Shown here: positions 1-35,508 of the stretch, in pieces
Layout of the letters: the number at the start of each line of letters is the position of its first letter
Position numbering within the stretch: the first letter of the stretch is position 1
Origin: Planctomycetota bacterium
GTDB lineage: Bacteria > Planctomycetota > UBA8742 > UBA2392
Length of the DNA: 64,000 bases
Assembly (NCBI GenBank): GCA_022071975.1
Contig: JAJVIO010000052.1
Span: forward strand, 38,548-102,547
Direction of reading: 5' to 3'
Translations under genes and position numbers: made by a program
The notes under the pieces: model-generated
Told to the model about the DNA's origin: nothing
Databases searched by the model: none
Seen by the model: only the letters and a program-made list of their open reading frames with translations

Positions 1-1
1 G

Positions 2-1327
2 CGCGACGCCGGCGAGATACGCCGCTTCGCGGTGCCGACGCTCGGCATCATGCTGGGCAGCGCGCGGCTGGACCCCAAGCGCGAAGTGCGCCTCACCCGC
101 GTGCTCAGCGTGCGCCCGGGCAGCCCGGCGGCCATGGCCGGCATCCGCCCCGGCGACCGCATCTACCGCGTGCTGCGCGGCGTGACGGAGCAGCAGATCC
201 ACCAGCTGCGCATCGACAGCAGCGGCCTGCCCGACGAAGACAAGCCGTTCCAGACCCTGCCGCTGGACGAGGCGATCAGCCAGTTCCACGGCGCGCTGGG
301 CACCACCGTGGGGCTGAACATCATGCGCGACGGCTGGCTGCTCTCGCGCTGGGTGCACGTCACGCACACCGAGCAGAACCCTGAGGCCGTGCAGCACGAA
401 GCGCTGCCCGGCGGCCTGGGCATGATCCACGTGGCCGAGCTCACGGCCGCGTCACCGGCCCGCGTGAAGGAAGCCCTGGCGGCGCTGAAGGAAGGCGGCG
501 CCAAGGCCGTGATCCTGGACCTGCGCAATTGCGCGGGGGGCAGCATCGAGGCCGCGACGCAGGTCGCGGGCCTGTTCCTGCCCAAGGGCACGCTGGTTAC
601 GTTCAGCAGCGGGCGCAGCGAGGAGGTGGCGCCCACCACGAAGTACGTCACCAGCCACGACGCCCCGGACACCGAGCTGCCGCTGGTGGTGCTGATCAAC
701 GGCGGCACAGCCGACGCGGGCGAAGTGCTGGCCGGCGCGTTGCGCGAGCATAAGCGCGCGAAGACCGCCGGCGCCCGCAGCTTCGGGCGCGCGATCGTGC
801 AGGAGCTGATTCCGCTGCGCGCTGCGGAACTGGAGGAAGACGGCAAGCAGGCGGCGCTGCTGCTTACCGTGGCGCGCTACCGCGGGCCGGTCAGTGAACT
901 GGCCTGGTACGACCGCGGCGTGGAAGTCGACACCGAGCTGAAGCCGCGCATGTTTGAAAGCTGGATCTATGACGCCTTCGAGGAACTGGGCGAGAAGAGC
1001 GTGCTCGGGACGTACCTGAACAAGCTGATGGCCGGTACCGACAAGGAAGCGCTCAAGCAGCTTGCGCGCGGCGACGGCCACAAGACCGAGGGCTACCCCG
1101 GTTTCGACGAGATGTACGCCCAGGCCGCGGAAACGAAGCTGAGCCGCGAGGACGTGCGCTTCCTGCTGCGCCAGGAGCTGCGCCGCAGGCTGATCGCCGA
1201 GGGCGTCGAGATTCCGCAGGTGGACCTGCAGGAAGACACGGTGTTCGTCGGCGCGGTGAAGGAAGCCGCCAAGGCCGCGGGCATCGACCTGTCGGAGATT
1301 CCCGAGTACCGCATGATCAGCAAGTAG
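2..1327 (+). CDS. S41-family (C-terminal processing / tail-specific) peptidase homolog with PDZ domain, 5' partial; catalytic Ser/Lys apparently substituted
   Basis: PDZ-like GIRPGDRI segment, then an S41 core (ILDLRNCAGGS...LVVLINGGTADAGEVLAGAL...SFGRAIVQ). The frame is open to the window edge. The canonical GSASASE/TFGKG catalytic motifs read GTADAGE/SFGRA here. Confidence 0.7.
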   Translation, partial: RDAGEIRRFAVPTLGIMLGSARLDPKREVRLTRVLSVRPGSPAAMAGIRPGDRIYRVLRGVTEQQIHQLRIDSSGLPDEDKPFQTLPLDEAISQFHGALGTTVGLNIMRDGWLLSRWVHVTHTEQNPEAVQHEALPGGLGMIHVAELTAASPARVKEALAALKEGGAKAVILDLRNCAGGSIEAATQVAGLFLPKGTLVTFSSGRSEEVAPTTKYVTSHDAPDTELPLVVLINGGTADAGEVLAGALREHKRAKTAGARSFGRAIVQELIPLRAAELEEDGKQAALLLTVARYRGPVSELAWYDRGVEVDTELKPRMFESWIYDAFEELGEKSVLGTYLNKLMAGTDKEALKQLARGDGHKTEGYPGFDEMYAQAAETKLSREDVRFLLRQELRRRLIAEGVEIPQVDLQEDTVFVGAVKEAAKAAGIDLSEIPEYRMISK

Positions 1328-1390
1328 CATGGCCGTTCCGGCCATGTAGTGTTCACGGCCCTCCGGGCCGTGATTCGGGCCGGAGGCCCG
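1327..1390. terminator. cluster of GC hairpins between convergent genes (CATGGCCG-TTC-CGGCCATG; CGGCCC-TCC-GGGCCG; CGGGCC-GGA-GGCCCG)
   Basis: Perfect short palindromes seen directly downstream of the peptidase stop; they overlap the 3' end of the minus-strand membrane gene. Confidence 0.5.
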
Positions 1391-2399
1391 AAGCTACGCC
1401 ATCGGCGGGGACGCCGATGCTGCTGCCGACCGAAAGCATCCACCCGACCAGCGCGCACAGGCCGAAGCCGAAGGCGTTCAGCGTGCCGTGCCACACGATC
1501 ATCTCTGGCACCGTCTGCGTCGGGTAGCCGCGCCACACGCCCCAGGCGAAGATGATCGCCAGCGTCATGGCCGTGCCCAGCGACAGGTCCGCCACCACCA
1601 GCAGCACGCGCGAGGCGGGCGGCAGGCCCGAGCCCGGCCGCAGCGCGTGGTAAAGCTGCATCCAGCCCAGCACGATTACGCAGCCCGCATAGAAGAAGGC
1701 GCAGCAGGCCTCGAACCACCCGGGCGCGCCCAGGTGCGAGGCCGTGATGCCCGCCGCCACCAGCAGGTTGCCCAGCGAGACGCAGACTCCCACGGCGCCC
1801 GGAATGCGACGCTCGCCGAAGCGGGCGACAACCCGCCACGCCACCACCTGCAGCACCAGCCCGGCGTACAGCTGGTGCACGCCCGCCAGCAGCACGATCA
1901 CTTCCGGGAAGCCGAATGCCTGCCAGCGCAAAGCAGCAGCCCCCGTCCACGCGCCGCTGACCGTGAACAGCACCAGCCCCCAGTCGGCCAGCGCGCCCGC
2001 GCGGCGCAGGCCCAGCGCGATCAACCGCCAGGCGCCCGCCGCTCCGCACAGGCCGGTCAGGGCGATCCAGGGCAGCGCCAGCCAGATGCCGGCCGGCTCG
2101 GCGCTGAAGGCGACCATCAGCAGCAGCGCGGCGGGAAGCTGCGCCCAGGCGGCGAAACCCAGCAGACGAGCGGTGGGGGAGTGGCGGTCTTGACCGGTCA
2201 AGATCATGCCCAGGGCCAGCGGAACATGTACCAGCGCCCCCAGCCACAACAGGCCCAGGGCCCAGCCGGGCTCGAGAGCAAGGTGCGCGGGCAGCCAGAT
2301 GCCGATGCCTGCGAACGCGCGCAGCCACGCGCGCCCCCGGATCAGCGATGCCGAAGCCGGCACTGGTTGGGGGGCATGTGTTATGGCCGGCTCCGACAT
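1353..2399 (-). CDS. polytopic integral membrane protein (about 10 TM), function unknown
   Basis: Long hydrophobic ORF. Internal ATG at 2399 is preceded by an AGGGAG RBS. High GC3. Sits at the end of the minus-strand membrane gene cluster. Confidence 0.6.
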   Translation of the reverse strand: MSEPAITHAPQPVPASASLIRGRAWLRAFAGIGIWLPAHLALEPGWALGLLWLGALVHVPLALGMILTGQDRHSPTARLLGFAAWAQLPAALLLMVAFSAEPAGIWLALPWIALTGLCGAAGAWRLIALGLRRAGALADWGLVLFTVSGAWTGAAALRWQAFGFPEVIVLLAGVHQLYAGLVLQVVAWRVVARFGERRIPGAVGVCVSLGNLLVAAGITASHLGAPGWFEACCAFFYAGCVIVLGWMQLYHALRPGSGLPPASRVLLVVADLSLGTAMTLAIIFAWGVWRGYPTQTVPEMIVWHGTLNAFGFGLCALVGWMLSVGSSIGVPADGVASGLRPESRPGGP

Positions 2400-2480
2400 C
2401 GACTTTGACTCCCTAGAGACGCGCTGCCGCGCGTCCTGACCGCTGAACACCAGCACGTAGGGACACGCGGCAGCGTGTCC

Positions 2481-3101
2481 CTACCCGTAGCGGAACACAA
2501 ACATCACCAGCACGTCCCAGCCCAGGTGCGCGATAAACGCCGCCCAGAACGAGCGGGTCTTGTACGCGATCCAGCCCCAGGCCGAGCCGAACACCACGGC
2601 CGCCACCAGCAGCAGCGGCGGCCCCCAGGGCAGGTGCACCAGCGCGAACGCCAGCCCGCCAAGGGGCACGCCGGCGAGTTTCCACTTGTCCGTGAACGAC
2701 AGCGTGACCGCCAGGCGCCAGACGATTTCCTCGCCGATGATGATCCACACCAGCAGCGGCCATACCCAGAACGCGGGCGCCGTGTCCAGCATCGCGTAGC
2801 TGCCCGCCACCTGCTCGGCCATGCCCGGCCAGACCCGCGCCAGCAGCAGCGAGCCCAGCCAGCCCGCGCCGTAGAGCAACAGTGCGCACACCAGCCCCAG
2901 CCCGATCCAGCGCACGGAGGGCCTGAAGATCGAGCGCCACTCCAGCTTCACGCCCAGCAGCGCCACCGGCACAGCCACCAGGTAGAACGCCGCCATGCGC
3001 TGCCAGACGTTGCCCATGGCCTCGGTCAAAGCCCACATCAGCCCGAGGCCCCCAAAGGTAAGGCCCAGCGCGACAGGCAGGTTGCGGGTGGGTGCGGCCA
3101 T
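2481..3101 (-). CDS. CPBP family intramembrane glutamic endopeptidase (CAAX protease / Abi-like)
   Basis: All three CPBP motifs are present: EEIVWR (EExxxR), FALVH (FxxxH), HLGWD (HxxxD). Multi-TM. Its start overlaps the stop of the upstream gene. Confidence 0.8.
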   Translation of the reverse strand: MAAPTRNLPVALGLTFGGLGLMWALTEAMGNVWQRMAAFYLVAVPVALLGVKLEWRSIFRPSVRWIGLGLVCALLLYGAGWLGSLLLARVWPGMAEQVAGSYAMLDTAPAFWVWPLLVWIIIGEEIVWRLAVTLSFTDKWKLAGVPLGGLAFALVHLPWGPPLLLVAAVVFGSAWGWIAYKTRSFWAAFIAHLGWDVLVMFVFRYG

Positions 3102-3988
3102 CACGCCACCCCCAATCCTGGCAGTACGACCCCACGAAGGAACCAGGGGTGGAACAACAGAGGCAGTGGCGCGATCACCCAGATCACCGCCCAGAGGCGG
3201 GCTTTGAGGGTACCTGCCTTGATCGGCGCCAGCATGGCCGCTCCGTTGAGCGCGAAGTACAGCGTGGGCAGGCCGTAGCCCGCGTTGACCGGCAGGCTGA
3301 TGGCCGCCTCGTGCAGCAGGCCGCTGAACAGGAACACCACCAGCACGCCCGCGCGCCGGCCCCAGCTACGGGTGGCGCGCTGCACGCTCTCCTGGCACAT
3401 CTCGGTGTAGGCCAGGTTCCAGCGCCGCGTCCAGAAATCGGCCAGGCTGCGCGAGGCGAACGGATTGCGAAACAACGGGCCGACCTGAAACCCTGCCAGC
3501 CGCCAGCCCGCCACCAGCAGAGTGAACAGGCCGTAGTGCAGCACCAGGCTGCAGCCAATCAGCGCCGGCGCCGCGAACGCCCACAGGTTGCCGGTTTGCG
3601 CCCAGGTCCAGCGCGCCAGCAGTATGCAGCCGGCGCCGGCCCCGATACTCAGCAGCCCGAGCGCGGCAAGGCTCAGTGCGCCCTTGCGGGCCGCCGCGGG
3701 CGAGAGCGCCCGCGCCATCACCTGCGGCCGCATGCCGGGCCACAGCAGCAGCCAGGCCAGCAGACGGGGAAGCGACGGCAGCCGCTTGCCCGCCAGCCGC
3801 TGCTCCACCAGCACCACGGCCTTCATCCAACCGAACAGTACGCCGATCAACACCAGCATGCGCGTGACCGCGTCCGCCTCCAGCAGCCAATGCACAGCCG
3901 CCACCAGCGGCGGGCCGACTCCCCAGGCCGCGAGCCGCAGCGGTAGGGCCCCGGCGTGTCGTGTCAGGCCGGCCGTGCGGGTGCTCAT
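3101..3988 (-). CDS. MBOAT_2 (wax-synthase-like) membrane-bound O-acyltransferase family protein
   Basis: FWTRRWN...SGLLHE motif pair typical of MBOAT_2/wax-synthase-like acyltransferases; multi-TM. ATGA start/stop overlap with the upstream small TM gene. Confidence 0.65.
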   Translation of the reverse strand: MSTRTAGLTRHAGALPLRLAAWGVGPPLVAAVHWLLEADAVTRMLVLIGVLFGWMKAVVLVEQRLAGKRLPSLPRLLAWLLLWPGMRPQVMARALSPAAARKGALSLAALGLLSIGAGAGCILLARWTWAQTGNLWAFAAPALIGCSLVLHYGLFTLLVAGWRLAGFQVGPLFRNPFASRSLADFWTRRWNLAYTEMCQESVQRATRSWGRRAGVLVVFLFSGLLHEAAISLPVNAGYGLPTLYFALNGAAMLAPIKAGTLKARLWAVIWVIAPLPLLFHPWFLRGVVLPGLGVA

Positions 3989-4423
3989 GGCGCCTCCAGC
4001 AGGTTGAAGGCGGCTGCCCAGCCGAACGCGGCCGAGAAGTACAGGAACAGGGCGAGGAAGCCCCACTCGGCGACCTTGTATTTCAAGCCCTTGGGCGCGT
4101 CGGAGGCGTCGAAGTAAACCAGTTGCAGCACGAAGCGCAGAGCCCAGTACACGCAGATGAAGCCGCTGACGATGGCGGCCAGGGGCGTGCGATCCAGCAG
4201 CAGGCCGGGCGCCGCCACGGCCAGCAGGCCCATCAGCACGTTGATGGCCAGGATGTAGGCGGCCTGGGTGGTGAAGATCTGGCGCGTGAGGGGGCGCAGC
4301 GAAGCCAGCTCAGTTTTCCAGCCCAGCGCCTTGGGCGCTTGCGTGCTGGCCGCGGCCAGGGCGAACAGTCCGAGGCCCGCGACGCGCAACGCCCACGCGA
4401 TCAGTTCCGGGTTCACGGCCGCA
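3985..4423 (-). CDS. small 4-TM membrane protein, function unknown
   Basis: GTG start overlaps the stop of the upstream gene (GTGA). Hydrophobic ~146 aa with coding-like GC3. Translationally coupled within the cluster. Confidence 0.5.
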
Positions 4424-5057
4424 CCTCCATGCGCATGGGGCGCTGCCAGTGGCGCGCGCGGGACCAGCGGCGCTGCTGGCGCCAGAGGGGCTTGATCGCC
4501 CAGCTTGCGACCTCGCTGCCGACCACCGCAAACGGTGCGGCGAACATGGCGTAGACCACGCCGAACATCAGGACCACGAAAACCATGCAGGCGTTCAGGG
4601 TTTCCCACAATGCAACCATGCCCAGCGCCGCGTAGATCAGCATCAGCCCGAGCCATGAGGTGAACATGCGGCGCTCCGCGCTTGCCGCGGGGCCTAGCAC
4701 GGCCGCGCAGGCCAGCACGCCGATGGCGGGTGGCAGGAGCACAGGCACAAGCCAGTCCTCCAGCGCGAGCGCCGCCGCGAACAAAATCCATTCGAGGGTG
4801 ACCGTAGCTACTGCGCAGGTCATTGCCGCAGTCGCGCTGCGGAGGGGACCTGGTTTACGGGTTTGCCTTGCGCCCGGCAGGGGTGAGGCGTAGGGGACGC
4901 GGACGCTCAAGCGCTTGCCGAATGCCCGGGAGGGGAGGTCCGTGGCACGGGGCGCGGTTCTGCGCCATTCGCCGCTGTCTTCGGGCAGGCGTGTGTCGAT
5001 GAGGACGCCGCCCTTGATAATGGTGCTGTAGACCGTCATGGCGCACCCGTCTTTCAT
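4413..5057 (-). CDS. membrane protein with ~90-aa N-terminal soluble region and C-terminal TM helices, function unknown
   Basis: Coding-like codon usage from the ATG at 5057 (alternative ATG at 5039). The operator-like palindrome lies immediately upstream. Confidence 0.5.
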   Translation of the reverse strand: MKDGCAMTVYSTIIKGGVLIDTRLPEDSGEWRRTAPRATDLPSRAFGKRLSVRVPYASPLPGARQTRKPGPLRSATAAMTCAVATVTLEWILFAAALALEDWLVPVLLPPAIGVLACAAVLGPAASAERRMFTSWLGLMLIYAALGMVALWETLNACMVFVVLMFGVVYAMFAAPFAVVGSEVASWAIKPLWRQQRRWSRARHWQRPMRMEVRP

Positions 5058-5065
5058 TTCGCTAT

Positions 5066-5083
5066 CGTCAGAGAAAACTGACG
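5066..5083. promoter_or_regulatory. operator-like inverted repeat CGTCAG-N6-CTGACG upstream of the membrane gene cluster
   Basis: Perfect 6-bp arms with a 6-bp spacer, in an AT-richer stretch just upstream of the first cluster gene. The same motif recurs upstream of the adjacent GbsR-type regulator. Confidence 0.55.
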
Positions 5084-5103
5084 TATAGCGGTCAAACAAA
5101 AAC

Positions 5104-5676
5104 TCAGCCCCGGTCCTTGGGGATCAGCTTGGCTGCCGTGCGGAACACCTTGGCCATGCGGCCGTGGCCGATGGCCAGGAACACGTCTATTAAATCCACG
5201 AACTCGTGGGCGAAGTCGGCGAACTTCTCGATCTTGTCGTGGGCTTCCTCGAGGCGCTTGCGTTCGGCCCCCTTGGCGCCCTTGCCGGCGCCTTCTGCGA
5301 AACCGGCGGCCTCGTGCAGGCGCTCCATGACCGGCACCACCTCGCGGCGGCGGCGCTCGCGGATGGTGGTGTGGAACCAGGTCCAGGGGTCCTGCTCGGC
5401 CTCGAAGAAGGTTTTGCGGTCGCCGGGGCGTGTCACGCGGCGCACCACGCCCCAGGCGATCAGGTCGCGGATGCTGGTGCTGGTGTTGCCGTGGCTGATC
5501 TGCAGGCGCTCGGCGATGCTGTCGATGTCGAGTGGTTCAGGCGAAAGGTACAACAGGGCCTGCACGCGGCCGACGGATTTGTTGACGCCCCAGAGCTGGC
5601 TGATTTCGGACCACACCTCGATGAAGCGGTCCTGCACCTCGCGCAGGGTGTCCCGGTTGTCGGCAGGCTCGTTCAT
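5104..5676 (-). CDS. GbsR/MarR-type HTH transcriptional regulator (choline/betaine-responsive repressor family)
   Basis: 190 aa. The winged-HTH segment LSPEPLDIDSIAERLQISHGNTSTSIRDLIAWGVVRRV is typical of the GbsR/OpcR family. Confidence 0.7.
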   Translation of the reverse strand: MNEPADNRDTLREVQDRFIEVWSEISQLWGVNKSVGRVQALLYLSPEPLDIDSIAERLQISHGNTSTSIRDLIAWGVVRRVTRPGDRKTFFEAEQDPWTWFHTTIRERRRREVVPVMERLHEAAGFAEGAGKGAKGAERKRLEEAHDKIEKFADFAHEFVDLIDVFLAIGHGRMAKVFRTAAKLIPKDRG

Positions 5677-5693
5677 CGCAGCATCCTCTGAAC

Positions 5694-5711
5694 CGTCAGT
5701 CTAAACTGACA
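5694..5711. promoter_or_regulatory. second operator-like inverted repeat CGTCAG-N6-CTGACA in the regulator/pepF divergent region
   Basis: Same half-site and spacer as the site at 5066-5083; lies 18 bp upstream of the regulator start codon. Confidence 0.5.
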
Positions 5712-5901
5712 ATACTGCATGAACCGGCCAGGAGCAAGAAAAACCAGAGCCCGGGGCGCAATCCCCGGGCAAGACGGCATGGATGCGCCGGTAAGGCCCC
5801 GCCCGTCCCAGGGCCCAGGAATTCTTTGAGGATTTGCGGGAGAAACCGGGGCTGGCGACGTGTTAAAGGCAAGTAAAGTAGTCGCCCTGAAAGGAAACGC
5901 C

Positions 5902-7626
5902 ATGCCGACCGACACCCTGGAAACACTGCCACGCCAGTACCCGCGCGAGTTCGTGCCCGCCGAGCTGGAAGTCCGCGGCTTCGACGACGTCGCGCCGCTG
6001 TTCAACCAACTGCTGGCCGCGAAGCTCGATACGCCCGAGGCCCTGGAAACCTGGCTGCGCAACGTCAGCGAGCTGGAGGCCGTGATCGGCGAAGTCGGCT
6101 CGCGCATTCACATCCGCAGCACCGTGGACACCACCAACCCCGAGTACAAGCGCGCGTTCCTGGACTGGGTCGAGCATTTCGAGCCGCGCCTGAAGCCGGT
6201 GATGCACAAGCTGAACGAGAAGTTCCGCGACGCGCCCGCCCGCGCGAAGCTGGACCGCGCGACTTACGGCATCTACGAGCGCGGCGTGCTGACGCGCCTC
6301 GCGCTGTTCCACGACAAGAACGTGCCGCTCGAGACCGAACTCGCCAAGCTGACCAACCAGTACGACGAGATCCAGGGCGCCATCACCATCCCCTTCCAGG
6401 GCGCCGAGCACACGCCCCAGGCCATGGCCAAGTTCCAGCTTGAGCCCGACCGCAACCTGCGCGAGCAGGCCTGGCGCGCCACCGCCGAGCGCCGCCTGGC
6501 CGAGCACGACAAGCTCAACGAGCTGTACGACAAGCAGGTCCGCCTGCGCGAGCAGATCGCCGCCAACCTGGGCCTGCCCGACTACCGCGCCTACGCCTTC
6601 AAGTCGTTCCTGCGCTTCGACTACACCCCCGCCGACTGCGACGCCTTTGCAGACGCCGTCGAGCGCGTGGTGATGCCGGCCGTAAAACGCAGCCTGGAGC
6701 GCCGCCGCAACGACATGAAGCTCGAGAAGTTGCGCCCCTGGGACCTGTCGGTGGACCCGCAGGGCCGCCCGCCGCTGAAGCCGTTCAGCGACGTGGAGCG
6801 CCTGAAGGCCGGCTGCAGCAGGATCTTCCACCAGGTTGACCCTGAGCTCGGCTCGCAGTTCGACAGCATGCGCGAGCTGGGCCTGCTTGACCTGGACAAC
6901 CGCAAGGGCAAGGCCCCCGGCGGCTACCAGAGCACGCTGAACGAAGTGCGCCTGCCGTTCATCTTCATGAACGCGGTCGGTGTTGACAGCGACCTGCGCA
7001 CCCTGCTGCACGAGGGCGGCCATGCCTTCCACGCCTTTGCGGCCGCGGACCAGCCGCTGATCGACTACCGCAGCGCGCCCATGGAGTTCTGCGAGGTGGC
7101 CAGCATGTCGATGGAGCTGCTGGGCCTGCCGCACATGGACGAGTTCTACAAGGGCGAAGAGCTCAAGCGCGCGCGGCAGGAGTTCCTGACCGGCATCATC
7201 GAGTACTTCCCGTTCTTTGCGGTGGTGGACCAGTTCCAGCACTGGGTCTACACGCATCAGGGCTGCACGATTGCGCAGCGCGAACAGAAGTGGCTTGAGC
7301 TGAACGAGCGCTTCGGCGGCGGCGTGGACTGGAGCGGCCTGGAGCCCTATCGCCGCAACGCCTGGCAGCGCATCGGCCACCTGTTCTGGGTGCCCTTCTA
7401 CTACATTGAGTACGCCATCGCGCAGATCGGCGCGCTGCAGGTGTGGCTGAACAGCAGGAAAAATGGCCCGAAGGCCCTGCAACAGTACCGCAACGCGCTG
7501 GCGCTGGGCGGCAGCAAGCCCCTGCCCGAACTGTTCAAGACCGCCGGCGGCAAGTTCGGCATGGACGCCGACACCATCAAGCCGCTGATCGACGCCCTGG
7601 AGTCAGCGCTGGCGGATTCTGAGTGA
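5902..7626 (+). CDS. pepF: M3 family oligoendopeptidase F
   Basis: HEGGH zinc motif (LLHEGGHAFHAF). ~575 aa with the PepF family's typical length. AGGAAA RBS before the ATG at 5902. Confidence 0.85.
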   Translation: MPTDTLETLPRQYPREFVPAELEVRGFDDVAPLFNQLLAAKLDTPEALETWLRNVSELEAVIGEVGSRIHIRSTVDTTNPEYKRAFLDWVEHFEPRLKPVMHKLNEKFRDAPARAKLDRATYGIYERGVLTRLALFHDKNVPLETELAKLTNQYDEIQGAITIPFQGAEHTPQAMAKFQLEPDRNLREQAWRATAERRLAEHDKLNELYDKQVRLREQIAANLGLPDYRAYAFKSFLRFDYTPADCDAFADAVERVVMPAVKRSLERRRNDMKLEKLRPWDLSVDPQGRPPLKPFSDVERLKAGCSRIFHQVDPELGSQFDSMRELGLLDLDNRKGKAPGGYQSTLNEVRLPFIFMNAVGVDSDLRTLLHEGGHAFHAFAAADQPLIDYRSAPMEFCEVASMSMELLGLPHMDEFYKGEELKRARQEFLTGIIEYFPFFAVVDQFQHWVYTHQGCTIAQREQKWLELNERFGGGVDWSGLEPYRRNAWQRIGHLFWVPFYYIEYAIAQIGALQVWLNSRKNGPKALQQYRNALALGGSKPLPELFKTAGGKFGMDADTIKPLIDALESALADSE

Positions 7627-7639
7627 AGTAAGGGCAGGC

Positions 7640-7730
7640 ATCGCGCAGAGAGCGCAGAGTACACAGAAGGACTGACGCTGAAAGGCTCTGTGCTCTCTGC
7701 GAGCTCTGTGCTCTCTGCGAGCTCTGTGCG
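7640..7730. repeat. intergenic hairpin with tandem short-unit arms (CGCAGAG / CTCTGCG units), likely terminator
   Basis: ATCGCGCAGAGAGCGCAGAGTACACAGA ... (CTCTGTGCTCTCTGCGAG)x2. The left arm is near-identical to the element at 55779-55842. Confidence 0.6.
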
Positions 7731-7831
7731 GCGCCGCACTTGCGGTTCTTCCTTATCCTCGTCGATCACACTGCAGTTGCAGTTCTTCGTGTCCTTCGCG
7801 TACCCTTCGCTGCCTTCGCGTAAGGCAGTTC

Positions 7832-8797
7832 ATGGAACGCACGCCGGAACAACAGGCTATTCGCACACGCCGCATCGCCACCGGGGCGCTGTTGTCCGTC
7901 TGCGTGTTCTGGGGCGCGACCTTCCTGTGGATGGAGCAGGGCACCGACGCCCTGCAGCGCATTCACGGCGAGGGCAACCACGCGGCCATCGGCGCGTTCT
8001 TCCTGTTCTGGCGCTTCGTGCTGGCGGCCGCGCTGATGCCGCTGCTGGTGCCGCGCAGCGTGAAACGGCTTGACCGGCGCGCGCTGAAGTGGGGCTTCTG
8101 GCTGAGCGTGCCGTTCGCGCTCGGCTTCCTGCTGCAGATCTTCGGCCTGGCGCAGGCCGACGTGCCGCCGGGGCAATCGGCCTTCCTGACCTCACTGTAT
8201 GTGGTGACTACGCCGCTGCTGGCGGCGCTGGTGTACCGACGCCTGCCTCCGCGCGGCGTGATGCTGGGCGTGGTGCTGGCGGTGATCGGCGCCGCGTTCA
8301 TGAAAGGCCCACCCGAGGGCGGCCTGAGCATCGGCGCCTGGGCCACGATCGGCTGCGCCGTGGTGTTCGGCGCGCACATCCTGCTGACCGACCACGCCAC
8401 CAAGCTGGCCGACCCCATGTCGATCACGCTGGTGATGTTCCTGTGCAGCGTCGGCTGGAACGGTCTCGCCGTGCTGATCGCGCCCGGCGGCGCCGTGATG
8501 TTTCAGCCCGCGCTGCTGGCGCAGGCCTTCACGGACACGGCCTTCGTGACCACCGAGCTGCTGTGCGCCGTGTTCGCCACCGTGATCGCCGTCAGCGTGC
8601 TGAACCGCTGGCAGAAAGAGCTGGCGCCCAGCCGCGCGGCCATCGTCTACACGGCCGAGCCGGTGTTCGCCGCGGCGATCAGCATCATCGCGGGGCGAGA
8701 CCACGTGAACGGCTGGCTGATCTTCGGCGCGGGCATGATCCTGCTGGCGAACCTGAGCGCGGAGTTCCTGCGCAAGCGCACGAAGCTTCCCAGCTGA
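7832..8797 (+). CDS. DMT superfamily (EamA-like) transporter
   Basis: 10-TM protein with two EamA-like halves. Confidence 0.75.
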   Translation: MERTPEQQAIRTRRIATGALLSVCVFWGATFLWMEQGTDALQRIHGEGNHAAIGAFFLFWRFVLAAALMPLLVPRSVKRLDRRALKWGFWLSVPFALGFLLQIFGLAQADVPPGQSAFLTSLYVVTTPLLAALVYRRLPPRGVMLGVVLAVIGAAFMKGPPEGGLSIGAWATIGCAVVFGAHILLTDHATKLADPMSITLVMFLCSVGWNGLAVLIAPGGAVMFQPALLAQAFTDTAFVTTELLCAVFATVIAVSVLNRWQKELAPSRAAIVYTAEPVFAAAISIIAGRDHVNGWLIFGAGMILLANLSAEFLRKRTKLPS

Positions 8798-9181
8798 TCA
8801 ATGCCGCACGTTGTGCAAAGGCCGGTCGTAGACGGGCATGAACGCCACCATCGCGCCCGCGGGCCACAGCACGGCAAAGCCGAACAGCAGCGCCGCCAGC
8901 AGCAGGCCAAGGGTGCGCTGGCCGCGACCGGCACGGGTAACGGCCATCGCCACCAGCCAGGTCACGACCGGCAGGACAAATGCGCCGGTTACCGCGCTGG
9001 CATAGAACTGCGCGAGCACCGGCAACTCCATGCCCAGGCTCTCGGCGGCCTTCAGGTTTTCGCCCACGTGGTACCAGGCAAAGCCGCAGCCGCCCAGGGC
9101 CGCAGCCAGACCCATGGCCAGCAACGTTGCGACACCACCCTGCTGCGGCCGCTGATCGGGAGGAACTTCGGACATGGTCAC
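8798..9181 (-). CDS. small membrane protein, hypothetical
   Basis: 127 aa, 3-4 TM. 4-bp overlap with the radA start suggests co-transcription. Confidence 0.45.
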   Translation of the reverse strand: MTMSEVPPDQRPQQGGVATLLAMGLAAALGGCGFAWYHVGENLKAAESLGMELPVLAQFYASAVTGAFVLPVVTWLVAMAVTRAGRGQRTLGLLLAALLFGFAVLWPAGAMVAFMPVYDRPLHNVRH

Positions 9182-11444: not shown

Positions 11445-11531
11445 GCGCCCCTACGGGGCGCGTGTGAATTCGCGACCATGATACCCACGGCTGAAGCCGT
11501 GGGCTAAGTTCTTCGGCCCCTACGGGGCCAA
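11445..11531. repeat. REP-like module, direct orientation (downstream flank of RAYT)
   Basis: GCGCCCCTACGGGGCGC ... CCCACGGCTGAAGCCGTGGGCTAAG ... GGCCCCTACGGGGCC. Confidence 0.65.
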
Positions 11532-22477: not shown

Positions 22478-22884
22478 ATTTGTCAGGATGGACAGGATGT
22501 GAATGGACGCGGACACTTGTGGAGCGCTCAAACTGAACCTGCGTCCTGTTGATTCCTGTACATCCTGACAACTGCGACTGCGGGGAACCACCAAGAGCAA
22601 TATCACGGTTCGTTCGCGGCCGTTCTGGCCCGAAGGGCCTGGCTAGGGTAGCCGGGGGCGGCAGCCCCCGGATCTTGGAGCCGCGATGCCGGGCGCCCGA
22701 AGGGCCGCCTAAAAGGTGCACTGCGCGGTTAGGCGGCCCTACGGGCGCGCGAGCGATCTGGTCCAGCTTCCGGGCGCTTACGCGCCCGGCTACCTTAGCG
22801 GGGCCCTTCGGGCCAGTTCGACTGCAAGCGAATCGTGAACGTGCCCTATGGAGTGCCATGAACGGTTCAGGTGGCCCTTCGTGG
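22478..22884. repeat. ~400-bp structured repeat, copy 2 (no MITE; internal segment in orientation B)
   Basis: See copy 1. Confidence 0.75.
22646..22794. repeat. ~150-bp segment bounded by GGGTAGCC/GGCTACC, orientation B (inverted relative to copy 1)
   Basis: Direct base-for-base comparison of the two copies. Confidence 0.7.
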
Positions 22885-29995: not shown

Positions 29996-31538
<1,543 letters not shown>

Positions 31539-31688
31539 TACATAGACTTCTATGAGAGGCGACTCTCATAGTCGTAAGGCATATCCTCTTTCATGGCTAT
31601 TCAACATACGCGTGCGCGGGGGCCCTGTCGTCTCGGGGCCCCCTTCGCACCCTTCGCAGTGGAAGACGGGCCGGCAACGGTCTCGGGC

Positions 31689-31765
31689 GCGCCGGTAGCT
31701 CAGCTGGTTAGAGCACACGCCTGATAAGCGTGAGGTCGGCGGTTCGAGTCCGCCCCGGCGCACCA
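31689..31765 (+). tRNA. tRNA-Ile (anticodon GAT)
   Basis: Cloverleaf with acceptor GCGCCGG/CCGGCGC, anticodon loop CTGATAA, encoded CCA. Confidence 0.9.
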
Positions 31766-31787
31766 TTCCACGGCAGCCGGGACGCAA

Positions 31788-31862
31788 GGGCCGGTAGCTC
31801 AGTGGTAGAGCGTCGCCTTTGCAAGGCGAGGGTCAGGGGTTCGACTCCCCTCCGGTCCACCA
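31788..31862 (+). tRNA. tRNA-Ala (anticodon TGC)
   Basis: Acceptor GGGCCGG/CCGGTCC with the G3:U70 identity pair, anticodon loop TTTGCAA, encoded CCA. Confidence 0.9.
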
Positions 31863-32280
31863 GCCTTCGCACTTTGTGCTTCGGCTGTCAGGCCAGGCGG
31901 CGCGCGTATGAGGTCGAGGTTTGGGAATGTGCGCCTGGGCGCATGCTCTCGAGCCCCGACGACGAGTCGGGTTTCGGCTCTTTGACAACAGCATACTGTG
32001 ATAGATCAGAGTGACTAGATTACTCCAGATTAGTGTTATCCTAGTAAGATAACCTATTCGCTAAGCCGCCGCCGGGAGGCGTCGGAAAGCGCGCGTCTGG
32101 AGAAAGTAACCAAGGCATCAACGATGAAACAGCAGCTGACGTCGCGAGACGTCGGGTGCTGACGCTACAACGTGTCTTGAGGCCTCAGCCACGGGATTGG
32201 CCGGGCGGCTTGTATTGTCGGCCCGGTCGGGAACGGAGCGAGAGGAAAGCGCACTCCTGGAGGGATCCAGGGGTTGTTGT

Positions 32281-35240
<2,960 letters not shown>

Positions 35241-35399
35241 CAACAATCTCCGGGTCTCCCGGAGTGTTGCAAAGCAAACGTGTATTAGCGATTCCAAGAC
35301 ACGTCGTTAGCGTCTCACGTGATGCCTTGTCACTAAAATCTATCCAGTATGCTGTTGTCAGCGAGCCGCGCTCGCTTTGAAAACCTTACGAGAATTTTT

Positions 35400-35508
35400 C
35401 TCGGTGCCCTTACCCTCGGGGACACACCCGATCCCATCTCGAACTCGGAAGTTAAGCCCGTGGGGCCGATGATAGTCGAAAGGCGAAAGTAGGTTGGTGC
35501 CGGGATAT
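35400..35508 (+). rRNA. rrf: 5S ribosomal RNA
   Basis: Conserved CCCATCTCGAACTCGGAAGTTAAGC and GCCGATGATAGT blocks. The terminal helix CUCGGUGCC/GGUGCCGGG pairs through G-U wobbles. Confidence 0.8.

Follow-up and report, generated by a model that had tools for sequence, protein, structure and literature searches.

To our knowledge, the bacterial membrane-bound O-acyltransferases (MBOATs) studied so far acylate cell-wall polymers, and those of the DGAT1/wax-synthase type are regarded as eukaryotic lipid enzymes. In the bacterial systems DltB-DltX-DltC-DltD, AlgI-AlgJ-AlgF-AlgX and PatA-PatB, the MBOAT works with a dedicated, co-encoded partner whose gene is tightly coupled to its own. The DGAT1/ACAT/plant wax synthase branch, in turn, is characterized by a multi-pass catalytic subunit with an FW.RRWN...SxxxHE core and an invariant Asn and His. 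A locus that shares features with both groups is present in a 64,000-nucleotide (nt) stretch (hereafter the window) of contig JAJVIO010000052.1, which derives from an uncultured planctomycete and has a G+C content of ~68-70%. Open reading frame (ORF) calls and direct reading of the sequence place six genes on the minus strand between positions 5711 and 1353: a regulator (REG), followed by five genes for membrane proteins, TM1, tm2, MBOAT_2, CPBP and a YndJ-like protein. The explanation that we favor, with a probability of about 0.5, is that a GbsR/MJ223-type repressor controls a heteromeric, acyl-coenzyme A (CoA)-dependent lipid O-acyltransferase together with an accessory CPBP/YndJ module. 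The best reading of the locus is one regulated transcription unit, assembled from modules that are also found separately.

The MBOAT_2 gene (3988-3101, minus strand) encodes a membrane-bound O-acyltransferase of 295 amino acids (aa), which matches Pfam PF13813 at 41.6 bits (cut-off 25, E = 1.6e-10). Two of its residues, N191 in the motif FW.RRWN and H226 in SGLLHE, are invariant in 31 homologues and align to the WN and HE positions of DGAT1. When the family profile was compared with all sequences in the PDB, the only protein matched was DGAT1 (E = 1.7e-5), across the WN...SxxxHE region at profile positions 165-253, and a deposited DGAT1 chain carrying a His-to-Ala mutation received a lower score. 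The single MBOAT_2 sequence, used against the PDB sequences, matched nothing. DltB structures are present in the PDB and were not matched by the family profile; the NCBIfam DltB model reaches 15.4 bits with MBOAT_2 (E = 0.008, at FW.RRWN), against a cut-off of 375. The window enzyme thus has the multi-pass catalytic subunit, the core and the invariant Asn/His pair in common with the DGAT1 branch, whereas it is bacterial and shorter (295 aa vs ~500) and resembles DGAT1 over only ~90 residues.

A further difference from the DGAT1 branch is that MBOAT_2 is always accompanied by a separate partner with four transmembrane (TM) segments, for which no counterpart has turned up by fold matching against the PDB. 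This partner, tm2 (4416-3985, minus strand), is a four-helix membrane protein of 143 aa, and its family has no Pfam or NCBIfam model. An alignment scan with tm2, limited to one genome per species, detected relatives in 124 species, and 80 loci were kept, which belong to eight phyla (Planctomycetota, Acidobacteriota, Gemmatimonadota, Myxococcota, Chloroflexota, Bacteroidota, Armatimonadota and a few Proteobacteria). According to custom hidden Markov models, the next gene after tm2 is MBOAT_2 in 79 of the 80 loci, and the remaining locus is cut off by the contig end. In a search from the MBOAT_2 side, tm2 was found upstream in all four loci for which DNA was examined, including those of Lignipirellula cremea and Mucilaginibacter terrenus; in a fifth locus, an unannotated gene of 153 aa lies upstream of MBOAT_2. 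The tm2 stop and the MBOAT_2 start overlap by 4 nt (ATGA or GTGA) in 57 of 84 junctions and are no more than 10 nt apart in ~75 of the 84. Clustering of the ORFs within 5 kb of ~75 tm2-MBOAT_2 pairs yielded no other recurrent neighbor outside the window's lineage except a divergent tm2 paralogue, and an AlgJ/AlgX/PatB/DltD/DltC-type partner does not recur among the ~75 loci.

The two proteins are also joined covalently in nature. An exhaustive HMMER search returned 1,483 tm2-family clusters at E <= 1e-3, and domain architectures were taken from the best 150. Among the representatives of these 150, there are 17 MBOAT_2-tm2 fusions, 3 tm2-MBOAT_2 fusions and 1 MBOAT_2-tm2-tm2 protein, which gives 21 fusions in either order, as well as 4 tandem tm2-tm2 proteins; Pfam recognizes the MBOAT_2 part alone in the fusions. 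Taken together, the adjacency in 79 of 80 loci, the 4-nt overlaps and the natural fusions make a strong comparative case for tm2 as a dedicated subunit or domain belonging to the MBOAT_2 enzyme. The idea of a "split MBOAT", with tm2 as an N-terminal part that has become separated from the rest of the enzyme, was judged unlikely given the fusions in both orders and the tandem tm2 copies. One further candidate for a tm2-MBOAT_2 fusion, P0060, was dropped because one third of tm2 is missing from it and a frameshift may be involved. Two proteins from the family search, P0329 (566 aa) and P0274 (220 aa), also carry a DCC1-like thiol-disulfide oxidoreductase domain (PF04134), which is joined to MBOAT_2-tm2 in one of them and comes after tm2 in the other; this recurrent association may hint at redox chemistry or at a thiol-containing substrate.

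The AlphaFold2 model of tm2 (predicted local distance difference test score, pLDDT, 93.6) consists of four TM helices and a short helix, with no extracytoplasmic domain. R45, Q46, W91, R94 and Q98 are invariant, and a loop carries the motif YFD(R)SDAPxG. When the positive-inside rule is applied, its two conserved polar motifs, LRPLTRQ and YFDxSDAPxG, are predicted to be cytoplasmic, and it is from the cytoplasm that DGAT1-type enzymes receive acyl-CoA. In pairing an MBOAT with a dedicated partner encoded by a tightly coupled gene, the window locus resembles the Dlt, Alg and Pat systems. Unlike the partners in those systems, however, tm2 is an all-membrane four-helix protein that lacks a periplasmic transferase domain, and no carrier or SGNH partner recurs nearby.

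Upstream of the membrane genes lies REG (5676-5104, minus strand), which encodes a winged-helix protein of 190 aa of the GbsR/MJ223 type within the MarR superfamily. It matches Pfam MarR_2 at 35 bits (gathering cut-off 27), and its closest solved structure is MJ223 (1ku9, E = 8e-18), which we take to be the structural archetype of the GbsR group. With the NCBIfam model for the choline regulator CudC, REG reaches 64 bits (E = 1e-17), short of the equivalog cut-off of 218; judged from these scores, it is a relative of CudC and not its equivalog. In a related locus, L003 (L-numbers are labels of related loci from other genomes or contigs), REG is 87% identical. The described GbsR repressors, namely Bacillus subtilis GbsR/OpuAR, staphylococcal CudC and MJ223, belong to the same winged-helix fold family. 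Like them, REG adjoins its presumed targets and has palindromic operator candidates that include one before its own gene. In contrast to GbsR and CudC, which control genes for osmoprotectant uptake or synthesis, REG presumably controls membrane enzymes, and its score falls below the CudC equivalog cut-off.

Two operator-like palindromes accompany REG. Palindrome 1 (5694-5711; CGTCAG-N6-CTGACA on the plus strand) is located 17 nt upstream of the REG ATG, and palindrome 2 (5066-5083; CGTCAG-N6-CTGACG) lies in the gap between REG and TM1, 26 nt upstream of the TM1 ATG. Their common 16-bp form, GTCAG-N6-CTGAC, occurs in two copies in the 64 kb (5067-5082 and 5695-5710), compared with an expectation of 0.07, and none of 100 shuffled sequences contained two. 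Palindrome 1, TATTGTCAGTTTAGACTGAC, is kept at the same position in L009, L011-L014 and L016, and a variant is present upstream of REG in L046, a locus that consists of REG-tm2-MBOAT_2 alone. Both palindromes are conserved in position in every relative locus that has REG, and the seven related full clusters are all among these. L009 has an extra gene between REG and TM1, yet palindrome 2 is still directly upstream of TM1. Among the ~80 loci without REG, the palindrome is found in only two, which were taken as chance matches. The two sites are thus candidate operators at REG's own gene and at the first membrane gene, and binding of REG to them is predicted. The gap between REG and TM1 is 64 nt, and both genes are on the same strand; REG may therefore be co-transcribed with the membrane genes. 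A GbsR/MarR-type regulator directly upstream, and one palindrome in front of both the regulator and the first gene of the cluster, had been noted in a preliminary description of this DNA, and both observations are borne out.

The first gene of the cluster, TM1, starts at the ATG at 5039 rather than at 4823 and ends at 4413 (minus strand), which gives a protein of 208 aa. Hydropathy analysis indicates a soluble N-terminus of ~75 aa, in which the motif P-E/Q-D-S-G-E-W is conserved, and after it ~4 TM segments of low conservation. The N-terminal sequence "MTVYSTII...RLPEDSGEW" is conserved in the relatives (alignment with L009, L011-L014 and L016), and in the closest relative the upstream ATG is absent and the "MTVYST" start is retained. 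Furthermore, comparison of the window (~4993) with the strain contig L001 (~1016-1036) reveals an in-frame 21-nt indel inside the N-terminal region, flanked by a GACAC direct repeat. A leader RNA or riboswitch between REG and the ATG at 4823 was considered and rejected: an Rfam search of window positions 1-9000 (E <= 1) found nothing relevant, and the stretch is the coding N-terminus of TM1. The conserved N-terminal segment, the in-frame indel and the lack of an RNA family there therefore assign 208 aa to TM1. TM1 has no Pfam, NCBIfam or PADLOC match. Some relatives contain extra ORFs for small hydrophobic proteins of 140-156 aa (L003:9414-9875, L009:5628-6083, L010:6106-6576 and L010:7936-8358), which sit between REG and TM1, TM1 and tm2, or MBOAT_2 and CPBP; the ORF at L010:7936-8358 is a second tm2 paralogue, and the others have no detectable relatives.

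CPBP begins at 3101, or at a GTG at 3104, and ends at 2481 (minus strand; 206 aa). It belongs to the Rce1-like glutamic intramembrane proteases, matching Pfam PF02517 at 57.3 bits (cut-off 22.4, E = 2e-15), and the translation contains all three catalytic motifs intact, EEIVWR (EExxxR), FALVH (FxxxH) and HLGWD (HxxxD). Given this profile match and these motifs, CPBP is predicted to be an intramembrane protease, for which TM1 is a candidate substrate. It shares the three motifs with the CPBP/Rce1-like family, which includes Abi immunity proteins, MroQ and the Mrt sorting proteases. In contrast to the Abi and Mrt contexts, no CTERM-sorting substrate or bacteriocin gene was seen near the window CPBP, and it is not an equivalog of any named NCBIfam subfamily (MrtJ, 15.8 vs a cut-off of 75; ABC_perm_CPBP, 36 vs 435). 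A sequence search of the PDB for CPBP found nothing. Among the loci with tm2, CPBP is limited to the window's lineage.

The last gene (2399-1353, minus strand) encodes a 10-TM protein of 348 aa, which is clearly a member of the YndJ family (Pfam PF14158, 106 bits, cut-off 27, E = 2.6e-30, model positions 2-258 of 258). Its AlphaFold2 model (pLDDT 91.6; predicted template-modeling score, pTM, 0.89) contains 10 helices; two His and one Glu that are invariant in the family lie in even-numbered ones. The invariant residues include H175, E230, R264 and H304, and the His and Glu residues among them may form a metal or cofactor site. The best PDB matches of the model, heme-copper oxidase subunit I (6adq_F, TMq 0.57, E = 0.4) and NorB (3o0r_B, TMq 0.54, E = 1.8), are not significant, so that this modeled likeness should be taken as a lead only. 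Sequence searches of the PDB with the YndJ profile and for DUF1990 found no match. Elsewhere YndJ is found in DUF1990-YndJ pairs (PF09348 + PF14158), whereas in the window there is no DUF1990 and CPBP precedes YndJ instead; we know of no function for either family. The CPBP-YndJ adjacency recurs in L094 and in L100, a distant locus, and literature searches turned up no description of this pairing.

The membrane genes are closely spaced. Read from the sequence, TM1 and tm2 overlap by 4 nt (GTGA), as do tm2 and MBOAT_2 (ATGA), and MBOAT_2 and CPBP overlap by 1 nt (TGATG), or by 4 nt (GTGA) if CPBP starts at GTG 3104. CPBP and YndJ do not overlap and are separated by an 81-nt gap that can form a hairpin. 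The preliminary description, which reported five tightly packed genes with GTGA, ATGA and 1-nt overlaps, is borne out at three junctions and corrected at the fourth. Likewise, its "two small TM proteins" hold for tm2, whereas TM1 is longer than had been assumed and has a conserved soluble N-terminus, and its uncharacterized 10-TM protein does have ten helices in the model but belongs to a named family. The hairpin in the gap (2414-2483, minus strand) has a stem of ~30 bp and a predicted stability of -53.2 kcal/mol (z = -5.4; none of 200 shuffled sequences was as stable). It occurs once in the window. L014 and L094 retain its arms, both of which show changes, and it is not found in L009, L011-L013 or L016; it may act in processing or stability, or it may be a small palindrome that has been inserted.

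Comparison of gene order across relatives indicates how the locus is built. REG, TM1, CPBP and YndJ occur together with tm2-MBOAT_2 only in the window's lineage (L009, L011-L014, L016), which also shares the wider neighborhood (Thy1, PALP, S41 and P-type ATPase genes). Full synteny in a single lineage with shared flanks therefore says little about function. More is learned from loci in which the arrangement differs. In L046, REG, tm2 and MBOAT_2 occur without CPBP; in L094, the order is REG-TM1-CPBP-YndJ, with a TM1 of 338 aa and a YndJ 99% identical to that of the window, and the equivalent of window 4446-3088, which contains tm2 and MBOAT_2, is absent. In L095 (5149-9363), a YndJ gene (85% identical) stands beside the S41 gene with none of the other cluster genes; a weak Coq4-like ORF (E = 0.0024) is located upstream of this YndJ on the opposite strand. 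The sequence L094:1-4211, which corresponds to window 5880-748, is 96% identical at the nucleotide level in CPBP-YndJ and only 87% in the REG/TM1 part, and since the identities differ between the parts, this contig is either a recombinant or a chimeric assembly. Thus either half, the acyltransferase or CPBP/YndJ, can occur in the absence of its counterpart.

The preliminary description had proposed that its conservation be checked by gene neighborhood, and synteny is indeed found in the window's lineage; beyond this lineage, the five genes and REG are not conserved as a set, and tm2-MBOAT_2 is the core that crosses phyla. A regulated and coupled membrane locus was correctly recognized, whereas a protease plus an acyltransferase is not its defining combination, because the constant partner of MBOAT_2 is tm2. 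The suggestion that CPBP and the acyltransferase act on one substrate is not supported in that form, as the two can separate in nature (L094 lacks tm2 and MBOAT_2, and L046 lacks CPBP). The remaining statements, on the MBOAT_2 and CPBP family assignments, on the intact CPBP motifs and on the absence of a known pathway, agree with the present results: both profile scores exceed the Pfam gathering cut-offs, NCBIfam provides an equivalog for none of the six proteins, and none of the five membrane proteins matches any PADLOC defense model, with REG giving only a weak winged helix-turn-helix match to Csa3. Nothing relevant came from searches of the literature for YndJ, PF13813, MBOAT_2, DUF1990 and bacterial wax synthase/MBOAT; the name "YndJ" is met there only as that of a Bacillus marker for the polymerase chain reaction, and "MBOAT_2" leads to human MBOAT2.

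In the favored explanation, a REG dimer would most likely bind each of the two 16-bp palindromes, so that REG would regulate its own gene and would keep TM1-tm2-MBOAT_2-CPBP-YndJ closed until a small-molecule ligand releases it. MBOAT_2 would supply an active site of the DGAT1/wax-synthase type (N191, H226), and tm2, made through translational coupling, would be its stoichiometric partner, with its predicted cytoplasmic motifs on the side on which acyl-CoA, the donor, would be bound. Most probably, the enzyme would use acyl-CoA to O-acylate a hydrophobic acceptor with a hydroxyl group, for example a lipid, a fatty alcohol, a polyprenoid or a pigment, that would reach it out of the membrane, and the product would be a neutral or remodeled envelope lipid. 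CPBP and YndJ, together with TM1, would form a second, lineage-specific module under the same repressor, with a possible role in processing a membrane protein or in modifying the lipid pool used by the acyltransferase. A common lipid as the acceptor is favored by the DGAT1-like catalytic region together with the finding that the pair usually stands alone.

Several results weigh against this explanation. The match to DGAT1 covers only ~90 residues of the catalytic core, which all MBOATs have in common to some extent, protein- and polysaccharide-acylating enzymes among them, and some MBOAT_2 homologues also match PF03062 and are named "AlgI" by the Joint Genome Institute (JGI). Genes of lipid synthesis (fatty acyl reductase, sterol, hopanoid, carotenoid) do not recur beside the pair, so that the acceptor is not constrained by its neighbors. 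The fold of tm2 has no PDB match at E < 1, and whether tm2 provides a donor site, an acceptor site or a scaffold is a guess. A scan for sigma-70 promoters detected none, and literature searches found no biochemical or genetic data for any member. In addition, the natural variants without one half or the other may mean that the two halves are independent and merely co-regulated.

This last point leads directly to the idea that the genes are co-regulated neighbors of unrelated function, that is, a lineage-specific accretion under a stress-responsive repressor in which the acyltransferase and CPBP/YndJ share no substrate. Such an arrangement is rather unlikely, but it accords with the absence of either half in close relatives (L094, L095, L046), with the restriction of full-cluster synteny to one lineage that shares its flanking genes too, and with the fact that YndJ is elsewhere found mostly with DUF1990. 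It is harder to reconcile with L005, in which YndJ has independently joined tm2-MBOAT_2 in the order DUF1990-YndJ-tm2-MBOAT_2 with 4-nt overlaps throughout; in addition, YndJ is preceded directly by a tm2-family gene in five other lineages, in one of which CPBP lies between the two, and REG-like genes flank YndJ in four distant loci. A role in immunity or self-protection, which had been suggested in the preliminary description, found no evidence and is highly improbable. It would make CPBP an Abi-type bacteriocin immunity protein with membrane helpers, or the locus an anti-phage defense. CPBP/Abi proteins are bacteriocin immunity factors in Firmicutes, and the small variable hydrophobic ORFs inserted in relatives would suit such a function, but PADLOC detects nothing except the weak match of REG, the neighborhood contains no toxin, bacteriocin precursor or export gene, and the conserved core lacks CPBP altogether.

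Two other proposals assign MBOAT_2 a different acceptor. In one, CPBP would cleave a membrane protein, with TM1 as the candidate, and MBOAT_2 would O-acylate it in the manner of the protein-acylating MBOATs HHAT, PORCN and GOAT of eukaryotes. The intact CPBP motifs are consistent with this, as are the properties of TM1, which combines a short and strongly conserved N-terminal motif with a fast-evolving membrane part, is always the first gene behind palindrome 2 and is kept together with CPBP in L094. However, L094 has no acyltransferase, ~70 loci from the eight phyla have tm2-MBOAT_2 without CPBP or TM1 and without a conserved small-ORF neighbor other than the tm2 paralogue, and the sole structural-database match of the MBOAT_2 profile is a lipid enzyme; we consider this maturation pathway to be quite unlikely. 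The other would have the acyl group cross the membrane to a polysaccharide, peptidoglycan or a teichoic-acid-like polymer, as in envelope glycan O-acetylation or O-acylation of the AlgI/PatA/DltB type, with tm2 as a DltX-like helper. The bacterial MBOATs characterized so far are of this type, the JGI label "AlgI" is attached to many homologues, a few of which also match PF03062, and there is the weak NCBIfam DltB match at FW.RRWN. These indications are countered by the distance of the DltB score from its cut-off (15 vs 375), by the family profile finding DGAT1 and not the DltB entries of the PDB, by the absence of an extracytoplasmic domain from tm2 and by the lack of any periplasmic SGNH, AlgJ/AlgX or PatB-type transferase or carrier protein that recurs beside the pair. 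Glycan acylation is thus improbable, and the lipid O-acyltransferase remains the explanation that we prefer.

Beyond this preferred explanation, the distribution of YndJ suggests a wider set of connections. A metagenome scan gave 61 YndJ loci. The gene immediately before YndJ is DUF1990 in 28 of them and a tm2-like gene, with no MBOAT_2, in 4; one locus (L100) has the order tm2-like-CPBP-YndJ, and a REG-like gene accompanies YndJ in 4. The YndJ-linked tm2-like proteins group with the extra tm2 paralogue that is found upstream of some tm2-MBOAT_2 pairs and not with the MBOAT-coupled subfamily. That the same small set of families has recombined repeatedly speaks for a functional network, one in which MBOAT_2 and YndJ would both have partners of the tm2 type. 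A bolder version, which we regard as speculative and doubtful, is that the tm2 family represents a new class of partner subunits in heteromeric bacterial membrane enzymes, one subfamily working with MBOAT_2 and its sister with YndJ. The operon would then encode a ligand-inducible sequence of acyltransferase, CPBP and YndJ acting on one envelope lipid or lipoprotein-like substrate, a new route of lipid modification present in at least eight phyla.

The surroundings of the locus can be described briefly. Beyond its YndJ end, a convergent S41 peptidase gene occupies 32-1327 (plus strand), and an M3 peptidase gene, divergent from REG, starts at 5860 (plus strand). The intergenic region between REG and the M3 peptidase gene contains a terminator-like, GC-rich hairpin with a T-run (5749-5770, minus strand; -22 kcal/mol, z = -3.8), just upstream of palindrome 1; there is no minus-strand gene upstream for it to terminate. 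Elsewhere in the window are a complete rRNA operon (16S, tRNA-Ile, tRNA-Ala, 23S, 5S; 29996-35505) and two copies of the Acido-Lenti-1 RNA motif, at 11484-11529 and 22770-22815 (41.4 and 38.5 bits, gathering score 37).

In our judgment, the essence of the locus is a widespread and unstudied two-subunit, DGAT1-like MBOAT. In one planctomycete lineage, this enzyme has come under a repressor of the GbsR type, along with a CPBP-YndJ module and the lineage-specific TM1. This bacterial branch of the DGAT1/wax-synthase type is present in at least 124 species, and its partner family comprises ~1,500 sequence clusters. Since the carriers include cultured bacteria (Lignipirellula cremea, Novipirellula sp. 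SH528, Mucilaginibacter terrenus and Emticicia sp. BO119), its function is testable; the natural deletion variants and the operator/repressor pair, which offers a handle for induction, would aid such work. If the product is a neutral or modified lipid, bacterial lipid biosynthesis would gain a new enzyme class and perhaps a novel pathway leading to wax or ester lipids. YndJ, the DUF1990-associated proteins and many orphan CPBP proteases would, moreover, be placed in a functional context for the first time.

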